Positions 20,138 to 26,993 of a stretch of DNA of 28,078 nucleotides are shown here, one piece after another; within the stretch, counting starts at the first letter, position 1, and every line of letters begins with the position of its first letter. The notes beneath the pieces are model-generated. The model was not told where the DNA came from and searched no databases. It saw only the letters and a program-made list of their open reading frames with translations. The stretch comes from Bacteroidota bacterium (GTDB taxonomy: Bacteria > Bacteroidota > Bacteroidia > J057 > JADKCL01): contig JAYSVQ010000023.1 in assembly GCA_043718485.1 (NCBI GenBank), positions 1 to 28,078 on the forward strand. Direction: 5' to 3'. A program made the translations under genes and the position numbers.

Positions 20138-21850
20138 GTGAAGATGATTAAGAAATTCTACTCCATTTCATTCCTGTTCCTTTGGTTTGCCGGCTCGGGA
20201 TGCAGCCAAAAAGGTGAGCCTCCAAAGCCGCAACAAGATTGCAAAGGAATGGTAGTAAGTGCGCACCCGGAAGCCAATCGGGTTGGAATTTCGATTTTAG
20301 AAAAAGGGGGAAATGCAGTGGATGCCGCAATCGCAGTTCATTTTTCTCTTGCTGTTTGCGCTCCCTTTGCAGGCAATATTGGCGGAGGCGGATTCATGAT
20401 GATTCGAGATTCCTCAGGCCAATTTTATTCGCTTGACTTTAGGGAAGTTGCAGGAAGCATGGCAAAAAAAGAAATGTATTTGGATGCGAAAGGCAACGTT
20501 ATTCCAGGGAAAAGTACCGAAGGCCAAAGCGCAAGTGGGGTACCCGGATCTGTTGATGGAATGTGGAAGGCACATCAGAAATTGGGAAGCCTTTCATGGC
20601 AGGAATTGGTTGCGCCCTCAATACAATTGGCGAAAAATGGTTTCGCAATTACCAAGCAACAAGCCGATGAAATGAATTCCCTGCAAGAGAGTTTTAAAAA
20701 AAATAATGTGAATAAAAAGGCTTGTGTTTTTATTCGAGAAAAAAAATGGCAAAAGGGAGATGTTTTAATTCAAGAAGACTTAGCGGAAACGCTTGAGGAA
20801 ATTCAGGAAAAAGGTAGAGATGGGTTTTACACCGGACCCGTTGCTGAGAAAATAATTTTTGAAATAAATCGAGGAAAAGGCAGTTTCAACCTTGAGGATT
20901 TAAAAAATTATTCAGCTGTTTGGAGAAGCCCTTTAATCGGAAAATATAAAAATTACTCAATAATTACGATGGGTCCGCCCAGTGGTGGTGGCTTTAGCTT
21001 ATTACAAATGCTGGGCATGACCGCGCATTTTCCAATGCGGGAGTGGGGAAAAGACTCTGCACTTTCCTATCACCTTATGATCGAAGCAATGCGCCAAGCA
21101 GCATGCGACAGAGTCCATTTTGCCTCAGACCCAGATTTTAATTCAGTGCCCATAGCGGAGCTATTAGATTCAAATTATTTAAGAAACAGAATTTCTGCTT
21201 TTGACCCACACAAAGCAATTGCATCTGACAAAATTTCACATGGAAATGTTTCAGAAGAATCAGAAGAAACCACCCATTTTTCTGTAGTTGATCGCTGGGG
21301 AAATGCAGTTTCGGTAACTACGACGCTCAATTCATGGTACGGTTCCAGGGTCGTGGTTGAGGGTGCCGGATTTTTGCTCAACAACGAGATGGATGATTTT
21401 GCGAGTAAACCCGGTGCGCCCAATCTTTACGGTTTAGTCGGGAGTGAAGCAAATGCGATTGCCCCTAAAAAACGAATGGTAAGTTCGATGACGCCCTGCA
21501 TTTTAGAAAAAGATGGAAAATTATTTCTCGTGATTGGCACACCGGGAGGAACCACCATCCCCAGTCAGATTTTTCAGGCCTTGGTGTATTTGATTGATTT
21601 TGATATGTCATTGCAGGATGCCATTAACAAACTGCGATTCCATCATCAATGGTTACCCGATAAAGTATTTATTGAAGAGGGTGCCTTTTCACCTGAAATT
21701 TTCAATTCACTTTCCCAAAAGGGCCATGTAATAGAAAAAAGATCCTCCTTTGGCAGAATAGATGCGATTTTAGTGCATCCTAATGGCAGTCTTGAAGGGG
21801 GAGCTGATTATATGCGAGGGGATGATGCTTCTGAATGTCAACAGAAATGA
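20138..21850 (+). CDS. ggt: Gamma-glutamyltransferase (lipoprotein signal)
   Basis: GGNAVDAAIA, GNIGGGGF, DFRE, catalytic ETTHFSVVD, LLNNEMDDF, SSMTP, GTPGG motifs. Confidence 0.97.
   Translation: MKMIKKFYSISFLFLWFAGSGCSQKGEPPKPQQDCKGMVVSAHPEANRVGISILEKGGNAVDAAIAVHFSLAVCAPFAGNIGGGGFMMIRDSSGQFYSLDFREVAGSMAKKEMYLDAKGNVIPGKSTEGQSASGVPGSVDGMWKAHQKLGSLSWQELVAPSIQLAKNGFAITKQQADEMNSLQESFKKNNVNKKACVFIREKKWQKGDVLIQEDLAETLEEIQEKGRDGFYTGPVAEKIIFEINRGKGSFNLEDLKNYSAVWRSPLIGKYKNYSIITMGPPSGGGFSLLQMLGMTAHFPMREWGKDSALSYHLMIEAMRQAACDRVHFASDPDFNSVPIAELLDSNYLRNRISAFDPHKAIASDKISHGNVSEESEETTHFSVVDRWGNAVSVTTTLNSWYGSRVVVEGAGFLLNNEMDDFASKPGAPNLYGLVGSEANAIAPKKRMVSSMTPCILEKDGKLFLVIGTPGGTTIPSQIFQALVYLIDFDMSLQDAINKLRFHHQWLPDKVFIEEGAFSPEIFNSLSQKGHVIEKRSSFGRIDAILVHPNGSLEGGADYMRGDDASECQQK
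21743..21850 (+). repeat. Direct repeat copy 1 (functional 3' end of ggt)
   Basis: 101/108 nt identical, ungapped, to 23823-23930; 45-nt exact core 21749-21793. Confidence 0.95.
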
Positions 21851-21906
21851 TTCTGTTTGAATTGCCTGGGGATGTCATTGCTTTATACTTCCTGTTTGCC
21901 ATAATA

Positions 21907-22851
21907 TTATATAAGCTCCAATTGCCTATATCTTTTTTCAAGCAAATCACGATAAGCCGTTTTCATTTCTTTTGACAGGAAGGAACGATCGATCCAATCA
22001 AATGCACTTGATTTATTCTTTATCATTCGATTGAAGGCACCTTGCATCTGTTTAGAAGTCATGCCCAATTCTTCTCCTAACTGTTCAAAATGCGCTCGTT
22101 TCAACTTCCTTTTCTTTCCAACTAAGGTCAATGCAAGCTCCTCAGCATCTTCCGGGAACACAATTGCAACATTTAAAAGATCGTATGCAGGAGACAATAC
22201 CCAACCAGAAGGACTTTCAACCATTGAAAAGTTTTTCAGGTGCATATCACTATTTCCAGTTAGGAAGGAGAACAGCGCTAAGTCAAAGTAAAAAGTTTTA
22301 TCAAGCAAGGTGTTGCCCGAATAGCTGTCCAATGCTTTACCCACTTTCTCCATTGAACCTTTGTACTTATCAAACGCTTCTGTGATTTGGAACATATCAA
22401 TCATGTGTATTTTTTCGCCAGCTTCATTCCGATCCACTCGCTTCGTGATATAAGACAACTCTCCAGATGATAATCGAATTAATGAAGAAGGTACTACACG
22501 AATTCCAAAAGATTCTGCGATTCGCATGGTTACATGCTCGTTTTCGGGCATTTCGGAAAATCTATCTGAAGGGGGTTTAAAAATATAATATCCACCTAAT
22601 ACCCCAACTACAGTTAACCGTGCATCTGAACTCTCCTTACTTTTTTTAATTAGTGACATAGACAGTTTTGGCTGAACACCCGGGACGGCAACACTTCTTT
22701 CAACCACCACTTTTGCAAGTTCATTCATTTGGTCAAATGAATATTCCATTCTTGGAGGCATTGGTGTTCCAAAGAATGCCATTGAACATCTTTGGTGAAA
22801 TTCCAGTTTGTCTTCAACCCGTTTATAACAATATAAACATCTATGCTCCAT
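21907..22851 (-). CDS. HipA C-terminal-domain kinase toxin (HipT-like)
   Basis: Gly-loop PGVQPKL, YIFKPP, ENEH, ITKRVDR, catalytic GNSDMHLKN, LSPAYDLL; lacks the HipA N-subdomain. Confidence 0.9.
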   Translation of the reverse strand: MEHRCLYCYKRVEDKLEFHQRCSMAFFGTPMPPRMEYSFDQMNELAKVVVERSVAVPGVQPKLSMSLIKKSKESSDARLTVVGVLGGYYIFKPPSDRFSEMPENEHVTMRIAESFGIRVVPSSLIRLSSGELSYITKRVDRNEAGEKIHMIDMFQITEAFDKYKGSMEKVGKALDSYSGNTLLDKTFYFDLALFSFLTGNSDMHLKNFSMVESPSGWVLSPAYDLLNVAIVFPEDAEELALTLVGKKRKLKRAHFEQLGEELGMTSKQMQGAFNRMIKNKSSAFDWIDRSFLSKEMKTAYRDLLEKRYRQLELI

Positions 22852-23176
22852 CTTCTTCTGTTATTAGCACCACACTCACCGCACCGATACAATTCTGACA
22901 ACATGCCAGAAGTAATCCCATGCGATCATTTTTATTGATCTTCCAGTTCTCGGAAGCTATTTCTAACAACCATCCTTCAGGAATTAATCCCTCAAAAAAT
23001 GGGAAGAGTCGTTTCTCTGTATAGGGTTTAACTGTAACGGGCATAGTGAACGTGATGAAATCATGAGGATGGTCTTTTACGTATTGATCATCATATTGAA
23101 ATACATATTCCCCCTCATTCGTTTCCGTAAGGATTCCGGCCAAATGGATTTTATAAAAAACTCTTCCCTGTCTCAC
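22841..23176 (-). CDS. HipA N-terminal-domain protein (HipS-like antitoxin)
   Basis: 111 aa; AGILTE, YVFQYD, LFPFFEGLIPEGWL, CIGAV typical of the coupled HipA N-domain; overlaps both neighbours. Confidence 0.88.
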   Translation of the reverse strand: MRQGRVFYKIHLAGILTETNEGEYVFQYDDQYVKDHPHDFITFTMPVTVKPYTEKRLFPFFEGLIPEGWLLEIASENWKINKNDRMGLLLACCQNCIGAVSVVLITEEDGA

Positions 23177-23382
23177 TCATTCAGATTTTTACTATCAACA
23201 GGGGCCAGTTCATGTCCAAACATGTGAAGAACCAGATTAACTTTATCCATATTCAGATTCGTTTTATCCTGTTCAATTTTTCGTATTACAGTGAGTGCAA
23301 CTCCTGCACGATCTGCGAACTCTTTTTGAGTCAGATTAACTTCCTTTCTCCGGTCTTTGACAAACTCAGCCAGGGGCTTCAT
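23173..23382 (-). CDS. XRE-family HTH regulator (HipB-like)
   Basis: 69 aa; RRKEVNLTQKEFADRAGVALTVIRKIEQ HTH; ATGA overlap with the hipS-like gene; alternative start 23391. Confidence 0.88.
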   Translation of the reverse strand: MKPLAEFVKDRRKEVNLTQKEFADRAGVALTVIRKIEQDKTNLNMDKVNLVLHMFGHELAPVDSKNLNE

Positions 23383-23480
23383 TATATGCATTTGAATATA
23401 AAACTTAGCAAAGTTAGCTTTTTATATGCAAATACATATAGTTTCGCTAAAAAATATCTTTTTATATGCTAAAGCATATA
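23383..23480. promoter_or_regulatory. Three palindromic operators TATATG-N6-CATATA
   Basis: 23383-23400 (1 mismatch), 23423-23440, 23463-23480; the third extends to a perfect 11-2-11 palindrome (23460-23483). Confidence 0.8.
23409..23416 (-). promoter_or_regulatory. Bacteroidota -7 promoter element for the hipBST-like operon
   Basis: TAACTTTG(C) on minus strand, between operators 1 and 2. Confidence 0.7.
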
Positions 23481-23691: not shown

Positions 23692-23822
23692 GTAACCCTC
23701 CACATAAGTCCGTCTTGCTAATTCAATTTATTCTTTTTTGCAGTTTATGGCAAAAGTTTTTCAATTCGATTAAGAGTGTGATTAGCAATTTTTGTGAAGA
23801 TGGCTCGAAATCAAAAAAATGG
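23692..23822 (-). mobile_element. IS66-family right-end relic (TnpC C-terminus plus IRR)
   Basis: Minus frame PFF*FRAIFTKIANHTLNRIEKLLP* resembles the IS66 TnpC C-terminus (P..WL..VL.RI.DHP.NRI.ELLP); followed by a GTAA-type terminal repeat GTAACCCTCCACATAAGTCCGTC at 23692. Confidence 0.7.
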
Positions 23823-23930
23823 TCCTCATTTGGCAGAATAGATGCGATTTTAGTGCATCCTAATGGCAGTCTTTAAGGGGGCGCTGATTAAATGTGAGGG
23901 GATGATGCTTCTGAAGGTCAACAGAAATAA
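23823..23930 (+). pseudogene. Direct repeat copy 2: degenerate ggt 3' fragment
   Basis: 7 substitutions vs 21743-21850, three of them creating stop codons in the ggt frame. Confidence 0.9.
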
Positions 23931-24038
23931 TGCTGGTTAACTTAGGTCATGTATAGGAAAGTGCGGTTTTCTTTACACGTTCACTTTGACGTACAAAGAT
24001 TCTGAGCGTTTTCTTTACATGCTTCTATCTCGCAATTG

Positions 24039-24818
24039 CTATGCTTCATTTTCTTTAACCTTGAAAGATTTTTTGAACTGTTCAAAAACGCTATTTGGAT
24101 TGATAGTACCCAATCCCATTTCCTTGAAAATAGCTTTATCTGGCAAGTCACTTGCGGTCAATACTGCAAACTGATTAATATGGGCTTGAATCGTTTCAGG
24201 CAAATCAAATTCTGATTCAGGAGTGAGCATAACTGTTAATCGAAACACATCCGCTTTATGTTTTCTCAACTGCTTCGCATCTTCTTTGCCACCCCTTTCA
24301 ATTCTTTCTTTGATTTCCAAAAAAGCTTTTGCTTTTAAACTTATCAATGCTTCGATACTTGCATAGTGAAGGCCATCGTCCACCTTACTATTGTCAATCA
24401 TGTAATTATAATAGTCATCATTCAGCAAAATGGCGGATAGGCTAGAAAGGTCATCATCGATTGGAATCGGTGTGAGATGCGCCTCACTATCCAAAATAAT
24501 CATATCAGGTGTTCTTGAGAAAAGCTCTATTTGATGCGGGAAGGCGGCATTTTCAGGTTTTATGAATCGATAATATTCTCTTTCGTCATTACTTTTTTCT
24601 CGTTGCTGATATTTACCATCATTGATGAATTGCCAAAACTGCTTTACGAATTCTTTACTTAATGCTTCTACAACCAAAATTATGTCAATATCTTTTGTGG
24701 CTCTTGGAATAAATCCAGCTTCATCAATGATGATATCGCAGGCAGTGCCGCCAATAATCACGTAATTATTGGGATAATGCTCAAAGTATTTTTTAAAAAT
24801 GTCTAATCCTCTTACCAT
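24039..24818 (-). CDS. AbiEii-like (Pol-beta superfamily) nucleotidyltransferase, putative toxin
   Basis: IIGGTAC...RATKDIDII matches the GG.A...R.T.D.D motif; 7-nt overlap with the upstream gene. Confidence 0.75.
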   Translation of the reverse strand: MVRGLDIFKKYFEHYPNNYVIIGGTACDIIIDEAGFIPRATKDIDIILVVEALSKEFVKQFWQFINDGKYQQREKSNDEREYYRFIKPENAAFPHQIELFSRTPDMIILDSEAHLTPIPIDDDLSSLSAILLNDDYYNYMIDNSKVDDGLHYASIEALISLKAKAFLEIKERIERGGKEDAKQLRKHKADVFRLTVMLTPESEFDLPETIQAHINQFAVLTASDLPDKAIFKEMGLGTINPNSVFEQFKKSFKVKENEA

Positions 24819-25822
24819 ATATATTTTTCCAATAACTGCTTTAATGCCATTTCAACCCTTTCATCTCTTGTATCTTTAACGCTTAGGTAAAGAGAAAGTG
24901 GATCTACTGCATTCAAATCATTGGGTAATTCGCCCACTAAATTCAACGGGTTATATTTCCAGATTTCCAGGACAAATCGGCCCTCGTATTCATTCAGGGT
25001 CACCAAGGCATTTCTTTTCTTCAGGCTATAGAACGCTGATTTCTCAATTGCAAAGTATTGCTGATTGCTTGGATTCAGGTCAGTATATTCCGGCAGCGCA
25101 GATGCGTTACTTTGCAAAAGGCTGACCTCCTCTGGCTTTTCATCTACGAAAACCGTTTTTAACACCGGGTTCACCAGCAGGTTTTTTTGATGGGCAATGT
25201 TCCACAACTCATTTCTATCGTATTTAAAACGGATAAACTTTTCCTTTTCGCCCTGTACCTCTACCCATTCATGATGCTTTAAATTGTCAATGGCATTGGT
25301 AATCGCCATTGGCGTGTAATCAAATTTTTGGGCGATTTCTTTGAATGAATGTTCTTCGAGTTTCCAATTATTGTTACGATGGAGGATGTGGTAAATCAAC
25401 AAGAACTGAGCAGATGGCAATAGCTTTTCATTTTTTTGCTTCGCCTTAGGATGGGTGTAGCTTTCTCGTAAATCAACCATCAAGTCAGGCAAGTAAAGTT
25501 GTTTGCCGGGTACGATAAAATTGATGCCTTTTTCAATCAGTCTCTTACGTTTGTATGCCTGTATATTTTCAAACACCACCACAACTTTCTGGTTCAATAA
25601 ATCTTTAATTTGTTGTACCTGCTTTTCAGTTTGATGAATACTCAGTTCCTTATCGTTTTTCAATTCGGCCAGAATGATTTCGGTATTGAAAAATTCGGTT
25701 TTGTATAGTTTATAGGTTTCGTGGATATACAAAGGCAGCCTGTCCAGATTGCTTTTGGCTATGGGTGTTGTTGTAGCCTGAATACCCAGCGTTTCCAGAA
25801 TATATTTTAGTGCTTCCTTCAC
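24812..25822 (-). CDS. Winged-HTH protein, putative AbiEi-like antitoxin/regulator
   Basis: 336 aa, GTG start; central HTH SFKEIAQKFDYTPMAITNAIDNL; C-terminal VDPLSLYLS; coupled to the nucleotidyltransferase. Confidence 0.65.
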   Translation of the reverse strand: MKEALKYILETLGIQATTTPIAKSNLDRLPLYIHETYKLYKTEFFNTEIILAELKNDKELSIHQTEKQVQQIKDLLNQKVVVVFENIQAYKRKRLIEKGINFIVPGKQLYLPDLMVDLRESYTHPKAKQKNEKLLPSAQFLLIYHILHRNNNWKLEEHSFKEIAQKFDYTPMAITNAIDNLKHHEWVEVQGEKEKFIRFKYDRNELWNIAHQKNLLVNPVLKTVFVDEKPEEVSLLQSNASALPEYTDLNPSNQQYFAIEKSAFYSLKKRNALVTLNEYEGRFVLEIWKYNPLNLVGELPNDLNAVDPLSLYLSVKDTRDERVEMALKQLLEKYIW

Positions 25823-25832
25823 TTTATGCCTG

Positions 25833-25895
25833 ATAATAAAGCATATTATGCTCGATAAAGTTATTTAATTTATTATGCAACAATAGCTTTATTAT
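25833..25895. promoter_or_regulatory. Inverted repeats upstream of the wHTH gene, putative operator
   Basis: ataataaagc (25833-42) / gctttattat (25886-95); palindrome agcata-t-tatgct (25840-52); TATTATGC twice; near-consensus -7 TAACTTTA (minus, 25856-63). Confidence 0.45.
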
Positions 25896-25903
25896 TTTGG
25901 TTT

Positions 25904-26662
25904 TCAAAAGACAATACACTTATTCACCTCAAAAAATTCATGCTCGTTCCTTTGCACATAGCCTAACTGATTGGTAATGAGCTTTGTATTGCCTATGCTG
26001 AACGCTGGGGTGTTGAAATGGTGGTGGCCATAAACCCAATAGGCAATGCCGGATGCTTCAACCAAATCATACAACTCTACGGCAAAAGCTTCATTCAGCA
26101 CACTGCCTTTGTATTGCTCGGGATAGTTTAGAAAAGTAGGGCAGTGGTGTGTGAAAACAGCTAACTTTTCACCATTTGTTGCACACATTTCGTTTTGAAT
26201 ACATGCAAGACTCTCTTCATGCAATTGGTTATACTGCTCTACTGAAAAGCGAAAGCCGTTATGCCTGATTAAATGAAAATCGTTTAGATTCTTTTCTACT
26301 TCCCACTGGTGTCCCAGACTGATTTTGCTCCAAAGGGTAGAGAAAATCAGTTTGGCATTTTTATAATTCACAGAGGTGTTGTTCACTAGAAAAACATTGC
26401 TGCGGATTTTCTCATGCAGCACACCACTTTTTTCAGCTATTTCAAAATGGTAATACTCATGATTACCGGGTAGCCAATACGTGCGCTCAAAATGATCAGA
26501 GACAAAAGTGAAAAAGTCCTTGTGCTTGTCCATCACTGCAAAAGGAACTACATCACCCGCAAGCACCAATACCTCAGCCACTGGCTGCAAAGGATGTAAC
26601 TTTAAGAAATTTTTGTTGGCAGGAAATTCCAGATGGAGGTCGGAGGCGTATTGAAGTACCAT
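25904..26662 (-). CDS. Calcineurin-like metallophosphoesterase
   Basis: All five metal-binding motifs: DLH, GD, GNHE, THH, GHHH. Confidence 0.9.
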   Translation of the reverse strand: MVLQYASDLHLEFPANKNFLKLHPLQPVAEVLVLAGDVVPFAVMDKHKDFFTFVSDHFERTYWLPGNHEYYHFEIAEKSGVLHEKIRSNVFLVNNTSVNYKNAKLIFSTLWSKISLGHQWEVEKNLNDFHLIRHNGFRFSVEQYNQLHEESLACIQNEMCATNGEKLAVFTHHCPTFLNYPEQYKGSVLNEAFAVELYDLVEASGIAYWVYGHHHFNTPAFSIGNTKLITNQLGYVQRNEHEFFEVNKCIVF

Positions 26663-26993
26663 TGACTGATTCAGGATTAATTGAACGTTAGAATTTTCTG
26701 AATTGCGTAATCGCTTCTTACCAAGTATTGGTCATTCATTTTGTTAATTTTTTAATTCTACAGACTCAGGTTCAGGCATTTTTTTACTTCAACCAACACT
26801 TGTGTCAAACCTTTTTTCTGAACTCAAAGCTTCACTGCTTGAGCTTTAAGAAACATTCTTATTTTCAGGCACTTTCTGAAATGCAGTGTCTAAACCTTCT
26901 TCAAATCAAGTTACAAAGAAATCACGCATTGGGTCAGTTGTCAAATTTCCTTTCGCATCCTTAGCGATTTGGCGAATAAAATTCATTGGCGTT

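Follow-up and report, generated by a model that had tools for sequence, protein, structure and literature searches.

AbiE, the AbiEi/AbiEii system of Streptococcus agalactiae and Lactococcus, is a type IV toxin-antitoxin (TA) and abortive infection module for which type VII has now been proposed. Its toxin AbiEii, like the toxins MenT1 and MenT3 of the Mycobacterium tuberculosis modules MenAT1 (Rv0078A/B) and MenAT3 (TglT/TakA), is neutralised by antitoxin-induced auto-phosphorylation of a Thr or Ser residue. AbiEii can be reactivated in vitro by a cellular housekeeping phosphatase, no reactivator being known in vivo. MenAT1 and MenAT3 encode no dedicated phosphatase; the housekeeping enzyme PstP alone is known to dephosphorylate MenT3, and this in vitro only. 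Here we describe a locus of three genes for a metallophosphoesterase (MPE), a winged helix-turn-helix (wHTH) protein and a nucleotidyltransferase (NTase) on contig JAYSVQ010000023.1 of a Bacteroidota bacterium (assembly GCA_043718485.1). The analysed window of 28,078 nt is the entire 28-kb contig of a metagenome-assembled genome that is 72% complete. We are confident that the trio is an AbiE-type module, and comparison of related loci shows the MPE to be an integral, anciently associated and dispensable third component.

Like AbiE, the locus has two overlapping genes, the upstream one for a wHTH antitoxin/repressor and the other for an NTase of the DUF1814 superfamily, inverted repeats in the promoter region and the catalytic and phospho-acceptor motif R-x-T-x-D-x-D. 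Unlike in AbiE, the predicted antitoxin is of the COG4861/AbiEi_2 type and not of the COG5340 type, and the wHTH is the central one of its three domains. The NTase is shorter (259 aa) and acidic, its motif IV is a variant, and PF08843 fails to detect it. The subfamily also has a conserved third gene, that of the MPE, and its usual home in type I restriction-modification (R-M) operons. The Thr or Ser that is auto-phosphorylated in the MenT toxins stands two residues before the first catalytic Asp and aligns with T41 of the window NTase, the residue to which the phosphorylated Thr or Ser of MenT1, MenT3 and AbiEii corresponds. MenA1 differs from the wHTH protein in being small and without a wHTH, and tRNA targeting, which is shown for MenT, would apply to the window NTase by analogy.

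An earlier note on this DNA had described three co-oriented genes with a 7-nt overlap of the wHTH and NTase frames (24812–24818) and an 81-nt gap between the MPE and wHTH genes, with which the list of open reading frames agrees exactly (Table 1). Each of the three proteins has hundreds to thousands of homologues with 55–88% identity, and the triplet with equal spacing was found again in dozens of genomes. Because of these many homologues and the recurrence of the triplet at the same spacing, the three genes are an intact, co-oriented and real unit and not open reading frames arisen by chance. Most wHTH homologues start at an ATG four codons further upstream (340 aa), where the window (25820–25834) has an ATC; the open reading frame of the window begins at the GTG at 25822. 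In a search of sequencing runs, the stretch was found in DNA runs of sediment metagenomes only and in none of RNA.

Relationship of the wHTH-NTase pair to AbiE and MenAT

The window NTase itself had no match in Pfam, NCBIfam, PADLOC or PDB sequences. An exhaustive HMMER search gave a family of 2375 representative clusters, and 16 of 40 diverse family members (31–55% identity to the window NTase) matched PF08843, the best of them at 1.2e-6. The AF2 model of the NTase (pLDDT 82) superposes over its full length on MenT3/TglT (6y5u; Z 10.2, root-mean-square deviation 4.2, 205 residues aligned by VIA-align). MenT1, a COG4849-type relative, has the same fold (Z 8.8), and further matches were the fungal NTase-like protein 5uvd (Z 11.2) and JHP933 (Z 8.4), as well as LnuA (Z 8.6) and ANT(2'')-Ia (Z 8.1), both slightly below MenT1. 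When the family profile was compared with PDB sequences, 5uvd and MenT1 were reached at E values of about 0.3–0.7.

The residues G23-G24 and R39-A-T41-K-D43-I-D45 are invariant in both NTase alignments, A1 and A3. They fit motifs I and II as defined by Dy et al. (2014), hG[GS]-x(n)-DhD with an additional Arg in the second motif: I22-G23-G24 is followed after 18 residues by D43-I-D45, and R39 stands four residues before D43. The resulting R-x-T-x-D-x-D layout is common to the window NTase, AbiEii (R63, T65, D67, D69) and MenT1. T41, two residues before the first catalytic Asp as T65 is before D67 in AbiEii, pairs in the profile alignment with the phospho-acceptor T39 of MenT1 (F-T-R-D-V-D). The stretch L161-K162-A-K-A165-F166 resembles the start of motif III (KLxAaxxR in COG4849), with R172 at +10 and not at +7.

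The wHTH protein was likewise assigned by profile and structure comparison. Pfam gave a weak, sub-threshold match to a MarR-type wHTH at residues 135–191, and none of the AbiEi models, PF09952 included, matched the window protein (E ≤ 10) or its 29 homologues (E ≤ 0.01). Its AF2 model (pLDDT 88) has an endonuclease-like N domain (1–120), a MarR-like wHTH (130–216; Z up to 8.2) and an acidic C-terminal domain (217–336). Foldseek/VIA with the whole model returned matches per domain only, with no full-length solved relative and no AbiEi structure among the rows, and a search of AFDB clusters gave only uncharacterised 'MarR family' proteins; the lack of AbiEi structures in the fold search does not exclude the AbiEi family.

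A language-model search from the wHTH protein led to AbiEi_2. For comparison, 17 AbiEi_2 proteins of Bacteroidota (335–365 aa), each followed by an overlapping AbiEii gene, were collected. The wHTH profile aligned with this set over 276 colinear columns (hhalign 93.8%, E 1.8e-7; query 40–330, template 60–348), and a hidden Markov model of the set, run against a small database, found the wHTH protein at 1.3e-6. Because the profile-profile match is colinear over this length, the wHTH protein is, by sequence comparison, a divergent and remote full-length homologue of the COG4861/AbiEi_2 antitoxins. The size of 336 aa, which the earlier note had called large for a protein that it could not assign to a named system, is normal among these proteins. 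The proposed AbiE likeness of the pair was upheld by the MenT/AbiEii fold, the R-x-T-x-D-x-D motif and the AbiEi_2 homology.

The 7-nt overlap of the two frames was seen again in distant relatives, and the large NTase/wHTH family, which is annotated as 'hypothetical', belongs to the AbiE group. With the known COG4861-COG4849 pairs (PF09952 with PF08843) it shares the antitoxin length of 335–365 aa, three colinear domains and an NTase gene that overlaps the 3′ end of the antitoxin gene, and one such pair (G011) has an upstream MPE. The difference lies in the sequences, which have about 18% identity, and the NTase profile aligns weakly to the NTases of these pairs (hhalign 25%, E 7.8e-4). The source genome of the window contains a canonical pair of this kind as a second, distantly related AbiE-type module (contig C401, L094:934-2800), with matches to AbiEi_2 (PF09952, 1.5e-29) and AbiEii (PF08843, 4.5e-9).

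Several JGI records name wHTH homologues 'phosphoribosylformylglycinamidine synthase PurS component'. Pfam scans of the wHTH proteins revealed no similarity to PurS, and the name looks like an annotation artefact.

Association of the metallophosphoesterase with the pair

A census of the family comprised 45 genome loci and 80 metagenome loci (125 in total) with NTase identities of 42–87%. The wHTH gene adjoins the NTase gene on its upstream side in 118 of the 125. Many metagenome contigs were too short for judging the third gene, and its presence was therefore scored in the 98 loci with enough flank. Co-occurrence had been named in the earlier note among the checks on the unit, and the MPE was found to adjoin the pair in 78 of these loci, upstream in 53 and downstream in 25, while 20 are without it. 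As the loci are interrelated, these counts are not independent events, and the minimum number of changes on a tree is the safer measure.

In the NTase tree the loci with an upstream MPE form one well-supported clade (56 rows), and those with a downstream MPE fall mostly within a second clade (30 rows). Loci without MPE make up a basal clade and scattered losses, and the supported branches force at least six changes. The MPE tree splits in the same way into upstream and downstream types. In the downstream clade the MPE gene starts 2 nt past the NTase stop codon or overlaps it by 4 nt. Two loci (L010, L012) have a broken MPE gene beside an intact pair, from which it follows that the pair tolerates the loss of the MPE. 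Since the pair persists through at least six losses of the MPE, the latter is not needed for keeping the toxin silent.

Relatives of the MPE adjoin three other types of AbiE pairs. In G307 an MPE that nests in the upstream clade is followed by a DUF6088/AbiEi_3-like antitoxin and AbiEii; in G219 the order is antitoxin, canonical AbiEii and MPE; and in G011 it is MPE, AbiEi_2 and AbiEii. What the MPE-bearing loci share is thus the AbiEii-superfamily NTase and no particular antitoxin. Among canonical AbiEi_2-AbiEii pairs an MPE adjoined only 1 of 20 examined, compared with about 80% in the subfamily of the window. The distant MPEs of family f25 (a clade with about 28% identity) do not as a rule stand beside AbiE pairs; G011 is the sole case and counts as one additional instance, not as an association of the whole clade. 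Taken together, it is highly probable that the MPE is functionally part of the AbiE-type module, and the view of the earlier note that the phosphoesterase belongs with the pair is supported by the frequency of adjacency, the two gene orders and the MPE relatives beside other AbiE pairs.

The 81-nt gap between the MPE and wHTH genes is strongly conserved, with 25 invariant columns in an alignment of 18 loci. It carries a Bacteroidota-type −7 box (consensus TATATTTG, window TATTGTTG) inside nested inverted repeats, and from these elements it is predicted to hold the promoter and operator of the wHTH-NTase pair. By analogy, this layout is as expected for AbiEi-style autoregulation. The promoter-like signals reported in the earlier note were found to be conserved, but they do not make the MPE independent, which the note had considered possible.

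Some loci deviate in their third gene or in their location. On the metagenome contig Ga0102934_1014023 (L177, 9-2886) hsdM is directly followed by wHTH and NTase, without an MPE. On a Methylocella tundrae plasmid (NZ_LR536452.1; L185, 4762-7080) the pair lacks an MPE; the next gene, overlapping by 4 nt, encodes a hypothetical protein of 772 aa, which may be an alternative third component. MPE-less pairs annotated 'hypothetical' were also seen on conjugative megaplasmids of Pseudomonas. A putative phage scaffold of 99.8 kb from human faeces (MT835494.1, an unverified viral scaffold; L186, 4024-6541) carries wHTH, NTase and MPE in the downstream arrangement.

Possible roles of the metallophosphoesterase

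The MPE matches PF00149 (Metallophos) at 2.8e-12 in Pfam. All five motifs of the family (DxH, GD, GNH[DE], H, GHxH) are present as D8-x-H10, G36-D37, G66-N67-H68-E69, H172-H173 and G212-H213-x-H215, and these metal-binding and catalytic motifs are invariant in 29 homologues. In PADLOC-DB v2 none of the three proteins was assigned to a named anti-phage system; the only matches were a weak and partial one of the MPE to the candidate PDC-S10 (6.2e-7, residues 27–105) and one of the wHTH protein to CasR (0.0057).

By analogy to MenT and AbiEii, the NTase is a candidate toxin that would add nucleotides to the 3′ ends of tRNAs and stop translation. The wHTH protein probably acts as a repressor at the promoter of the pair, with the nested inverted repeats of the gap as its sites. 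As suggested by MenT1 and AbiEii, this protein is probably also what neutralises the toxin, its acidic C-terminal domain binding the NTase and causing it to auto-phosphorylate at T41. The MPE would most likely reverse a phosphoester made by the NTase. In the version that we prefer, it would strip the inhibitory phosphate off T41 and thereby re-arm stockpiled toxin, which would amount to a fast phospho-switch. Such a role fits an enzyme that is conserved with the toxin and yet dispensable for its silence, and we put forward the toxin-re-arming phosphatase as a possible, tentative assignment. Whereas the earlier note had proposed that the phosphoesterase removes a nucleotidyl mark or degrades a nucleotide signal, the work on AbiEii and MenT points to an inhibitory phospho-threonine on the toxin. 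The explanation as a whole, a three-component TA module of the AbiE/MenT group whose MPE reverses a phosphoester made by the NTase, seems to us about equally likely to hold or to fail.

Several observations weigh against this explanation. On the side of the pair, neither protein directly matches any AbiE model of Pfam or PADLOC, and the window NTase fails to match PF08843 even at E ≤ 10. Motif IV reads K188-A-D190-V-F-R193 (K-x-D-x-x-R) in place of +DxxD, so that the second Asp is gone, and the NTase has an acidic pI (5.0; median of the family 5.07), uncommon among toxins that bind tRNA; the altered motif and the acidic character call for caution against a simple transfer from MenT. On the side of the MPE, the signatures GDxHG and GDxVDRG of the PPP phosphatases are replaced by SDLHLEF and AGDVVPF, and membership in the PPP family is not supported by the sequence. 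Other MPE clades also dephosphorylate proteins, so that phosphatase activity is possible without PPP signatures. The weak matches of the MPE are to proteins of phosphodiesterase type (CpdA, E 0.0076, and YfcE, E 0.00068, in NCBIfam; MPPED2, E 0.11, in PDB), and judged by its sequence a phosphodiester substrate is at least as compatible. It also looks risky to translate a re-arming enzyme together with the toxin, although kinase-phosphatase operons do co-translate opposing enzymes.

Because the PPP signatures are lacking and the similarity to diesterases is weak, the sequence of the MPE leaves the choice between re-arming and trimming undecided. The MPE could erase the product of the toxin, as a phosphodiesterase that trims the 3′ additions of tRNAs or heals RNA ends. 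It would then serve recovery or repair, or function as a second antitoxin with the target as its site of action, which comes close to the removal of the nucleotidyl mark suggested in the earlier note. Besides the diesterase-type matches and the missing signatures, the tight coupling of the MPE and toxin genes in the downstream clade suits an enzyme limiting collateral damage. A further point in favour is that the antitoxin type beside the MPE varies, whereas the NTase is in every case of the AbiEii superfamily. However, the MPE is itself acidic (pI about 5.8 in 63 homologues), which is atypical for an RNA-binding enzyme; it is no essential antidote, given that the pair survives its repeated loss, and host exonucleases could do the same job. 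We consider erasure of the product unlikely. A prediction of the complex of NTase and MPE gave no answer (score 0.00) and is evidence neither way.

It is quite improbable that the MPE works independently of NTase and antitoxin, as an effector of its own (a DNase or a nucleotide-degrading enzyme) or as a co-travelling defence gene. Its adjacency to the pair in 78 of 98 loci over an NTase identity range of 42–87%, the two gene orders, the co-diversification and the translational coupling, together with independent recruitment to three other AbiE pair types, are patterns hard to explain without functional dependence. Proteins of the MPE fold can nevertheless be toxic DNases or endonucleases for single-stranded DNA (phage Gp48, PMC12287305; an MPE of P. 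putida). The partial match to PDC-S10, a single-gene candidate in PADLOC, the position of the MPE gene outside the promoter of the pair in the upstream clade, and a locus with a related MPE and no AbiE pair nearby (G275) also point in this direction. Even the TA nature of the pair can be questioned, since the acidic NTase might modify a small molecule or a protein, in the manner of the aminoglycoside and lincosamide nucleotidyltransferases, with the wHTH protein as regulator and the MPE recycling or reversing the product. As fold matches, LnuA and ANT(2'')-Ia rank only a little below MenT1, but the best full-length match is MenT3/TglT with its 205 aligned residues, members of the NTase family match PF08843, and the wHTH partner is homologous to AbiEi_2 antitoxins along its whole length. 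The overlapping genes, the R-M operons and other defence-like neighbourhoods and the presence on conjugative plasmids further render this very improbable.

Residence in type I restriction-modification operons

Of the 45 genome loci, 19 have the trio embedded in a type I R-M operon, a setting that the earlier note had missed, in one of two arrangements: hsdM-hsdS-[DUF3010 and Ser/Thr kinase, or DUF3800]-MPE-wHTH-NTase-hsdR-ygjP, and hsdM-MPE-wHTH-NTase-hsdS-...-hsdR. Elsewhere other restriction- or defence-like neighbours were seen. The NTase/wHTH family thus travels repeatedly with type I R-M operons in Bacteroidota. DNA homology among the loci begins at the start codon of the MPE gene and ends some 93 nt beyond the stop codon of the NTase gene, and at least 12 loci share this 3′ extension. 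In locus L003 the interval from the stop codon of the NTase gene to the start of hsdR (L003:8798-8871, equivalent to window 23946–24038) contains two perfect palindromes with the half-site ATGTA(A/T)AG, one with 9-nt arms and a 12-nt spacer and one with 13-nt arms and a 6-nt spacer. They are conserved in many loci, decayed in the copy of the window, and may be an operator or an RNA structure that controls hsdR. The conserved 93-nt flank had also been considered as an integron attC-like site or a small RNA; both were dropped, as the relatives show a plain NTase-hsdR intergenic region.

The window itself has no R-M genes, and purB, hipBST and ggt, its neighbours, are not conserved beside the trio in other loci. 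A probable relic of the 3′ end of hsdS, 20 codons long and upstream of the MPE gene, was detected by tblastn (LKAQAVKL*VQKKGLTQVLV against residues 386–405 of the HsdS protein of L003; 14 of 20 identical, E 6e-4 within the 331-nt spacer), a match that is weak when taken alone. A DUF3010-like stretch upstream of it (E 0.04) is out of order and was treated as noise. As both the spacer between NTase and hsdR and the end of hsdS have left relics, the most plausible reading is that an R-M island between purB and ggt has eroded, with loss of its R-M genes, and has left the trio of the window behind as an orphan.

Table 1 Features of the locus and its surroundings in the window
Feature	Position	Strand	Description
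MPE gene	25904–26662	minus	252 aa, ATG start; conserved third component
wHTH gene	24812–25822	minus	336 aa, GTG start; divergent AbiEi_2/COG4861-type antitoxin/repressor
NTase gene	24039–24818	minus	259 aa, ATG start; divergent AbiEii/MenT (DUF1814-superfamily) toxin candidate
Predicted promoter/operator of the wHTH-NTase pair	25823–25903	minus	81-nt MPE-wHTH gap, conserved
Inverted repeat in the gap	25833–25859/25869–25895
Inverted repeat in the gap	25855–25865/25882–25892
Conserved 3′ flank	23946–24038	minus	relic of the NTase-hsdR intergenic region (DNA homology)
Probable hsdS relic	26791–26850	minus	3′ end with in-frame stop (tblastn)
HipBST-type cassette	21907–23391		tripartite (hipT, hipS, hipB): HTH, HipA N-domain and HipA kinase
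Copies of the ggt 3′ end	21735–21858 and 23815–23938		91% identical over 124 nt

The HipBST-type cassette separates ggt from the trio and is flanked by the two copies of the 3′ end of ggt; it was inserted later, behind ggt. In relatives of the locus the interval between hsdS and the MPE gene has variable cargo, namely DUF3010 and a Ser/Thr kinase (L003:4624-6147, and L005) or DUF3800 (L004:5262-6143). The kinase gene in the L003/L005 layout stops 4 nt before the start of the MPE gene, and this may be relevant to the theme of phosphorylation.

The position between hsd genes recalls the prr locus, in which the anticodon nuclease PrrC, a translation-targeting suicide module as the trio would also be, is encoded within the EcoprrI type I R-M operon. 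This is an analogy only: the proteins are unrelated, an ABC-ATPase/nuclease on the one side and an NTase TA system on the other, the copy in the window is without R-M genes, and the likeness rests on gene arrangement, with control of the trio by R-M unsupported here. Inside an R-M operon the trio is possibly a second line of defence. In a further reading, to which we give well under even odds, the MPE, encoded in cis, would be the missing re-arming enzyme of toxins of the AbiE/MenT type. It would remove the phosphate by which the antitoxin had kept a stock of toxin silent, supply active toxin within minutes and, in an R-M operon, let the three-part module fire when a phage disables restriction.

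In the literature library that was searched, no paper mentions DUF1814 together with a metallophosphoesterase, and related searches yielded no description of such a trio. At its core it represents a new branch, so far without annotation, of the known AbiE/MenT kind, with the conserved MPE and the residence in hsd operons as new features, and it belongs to a family that domain-based defence finders miss. With an MPE kept in about 80% of the loci, the trio offers a concrete three-gene system for the question of how toxins of this group are reactivated.

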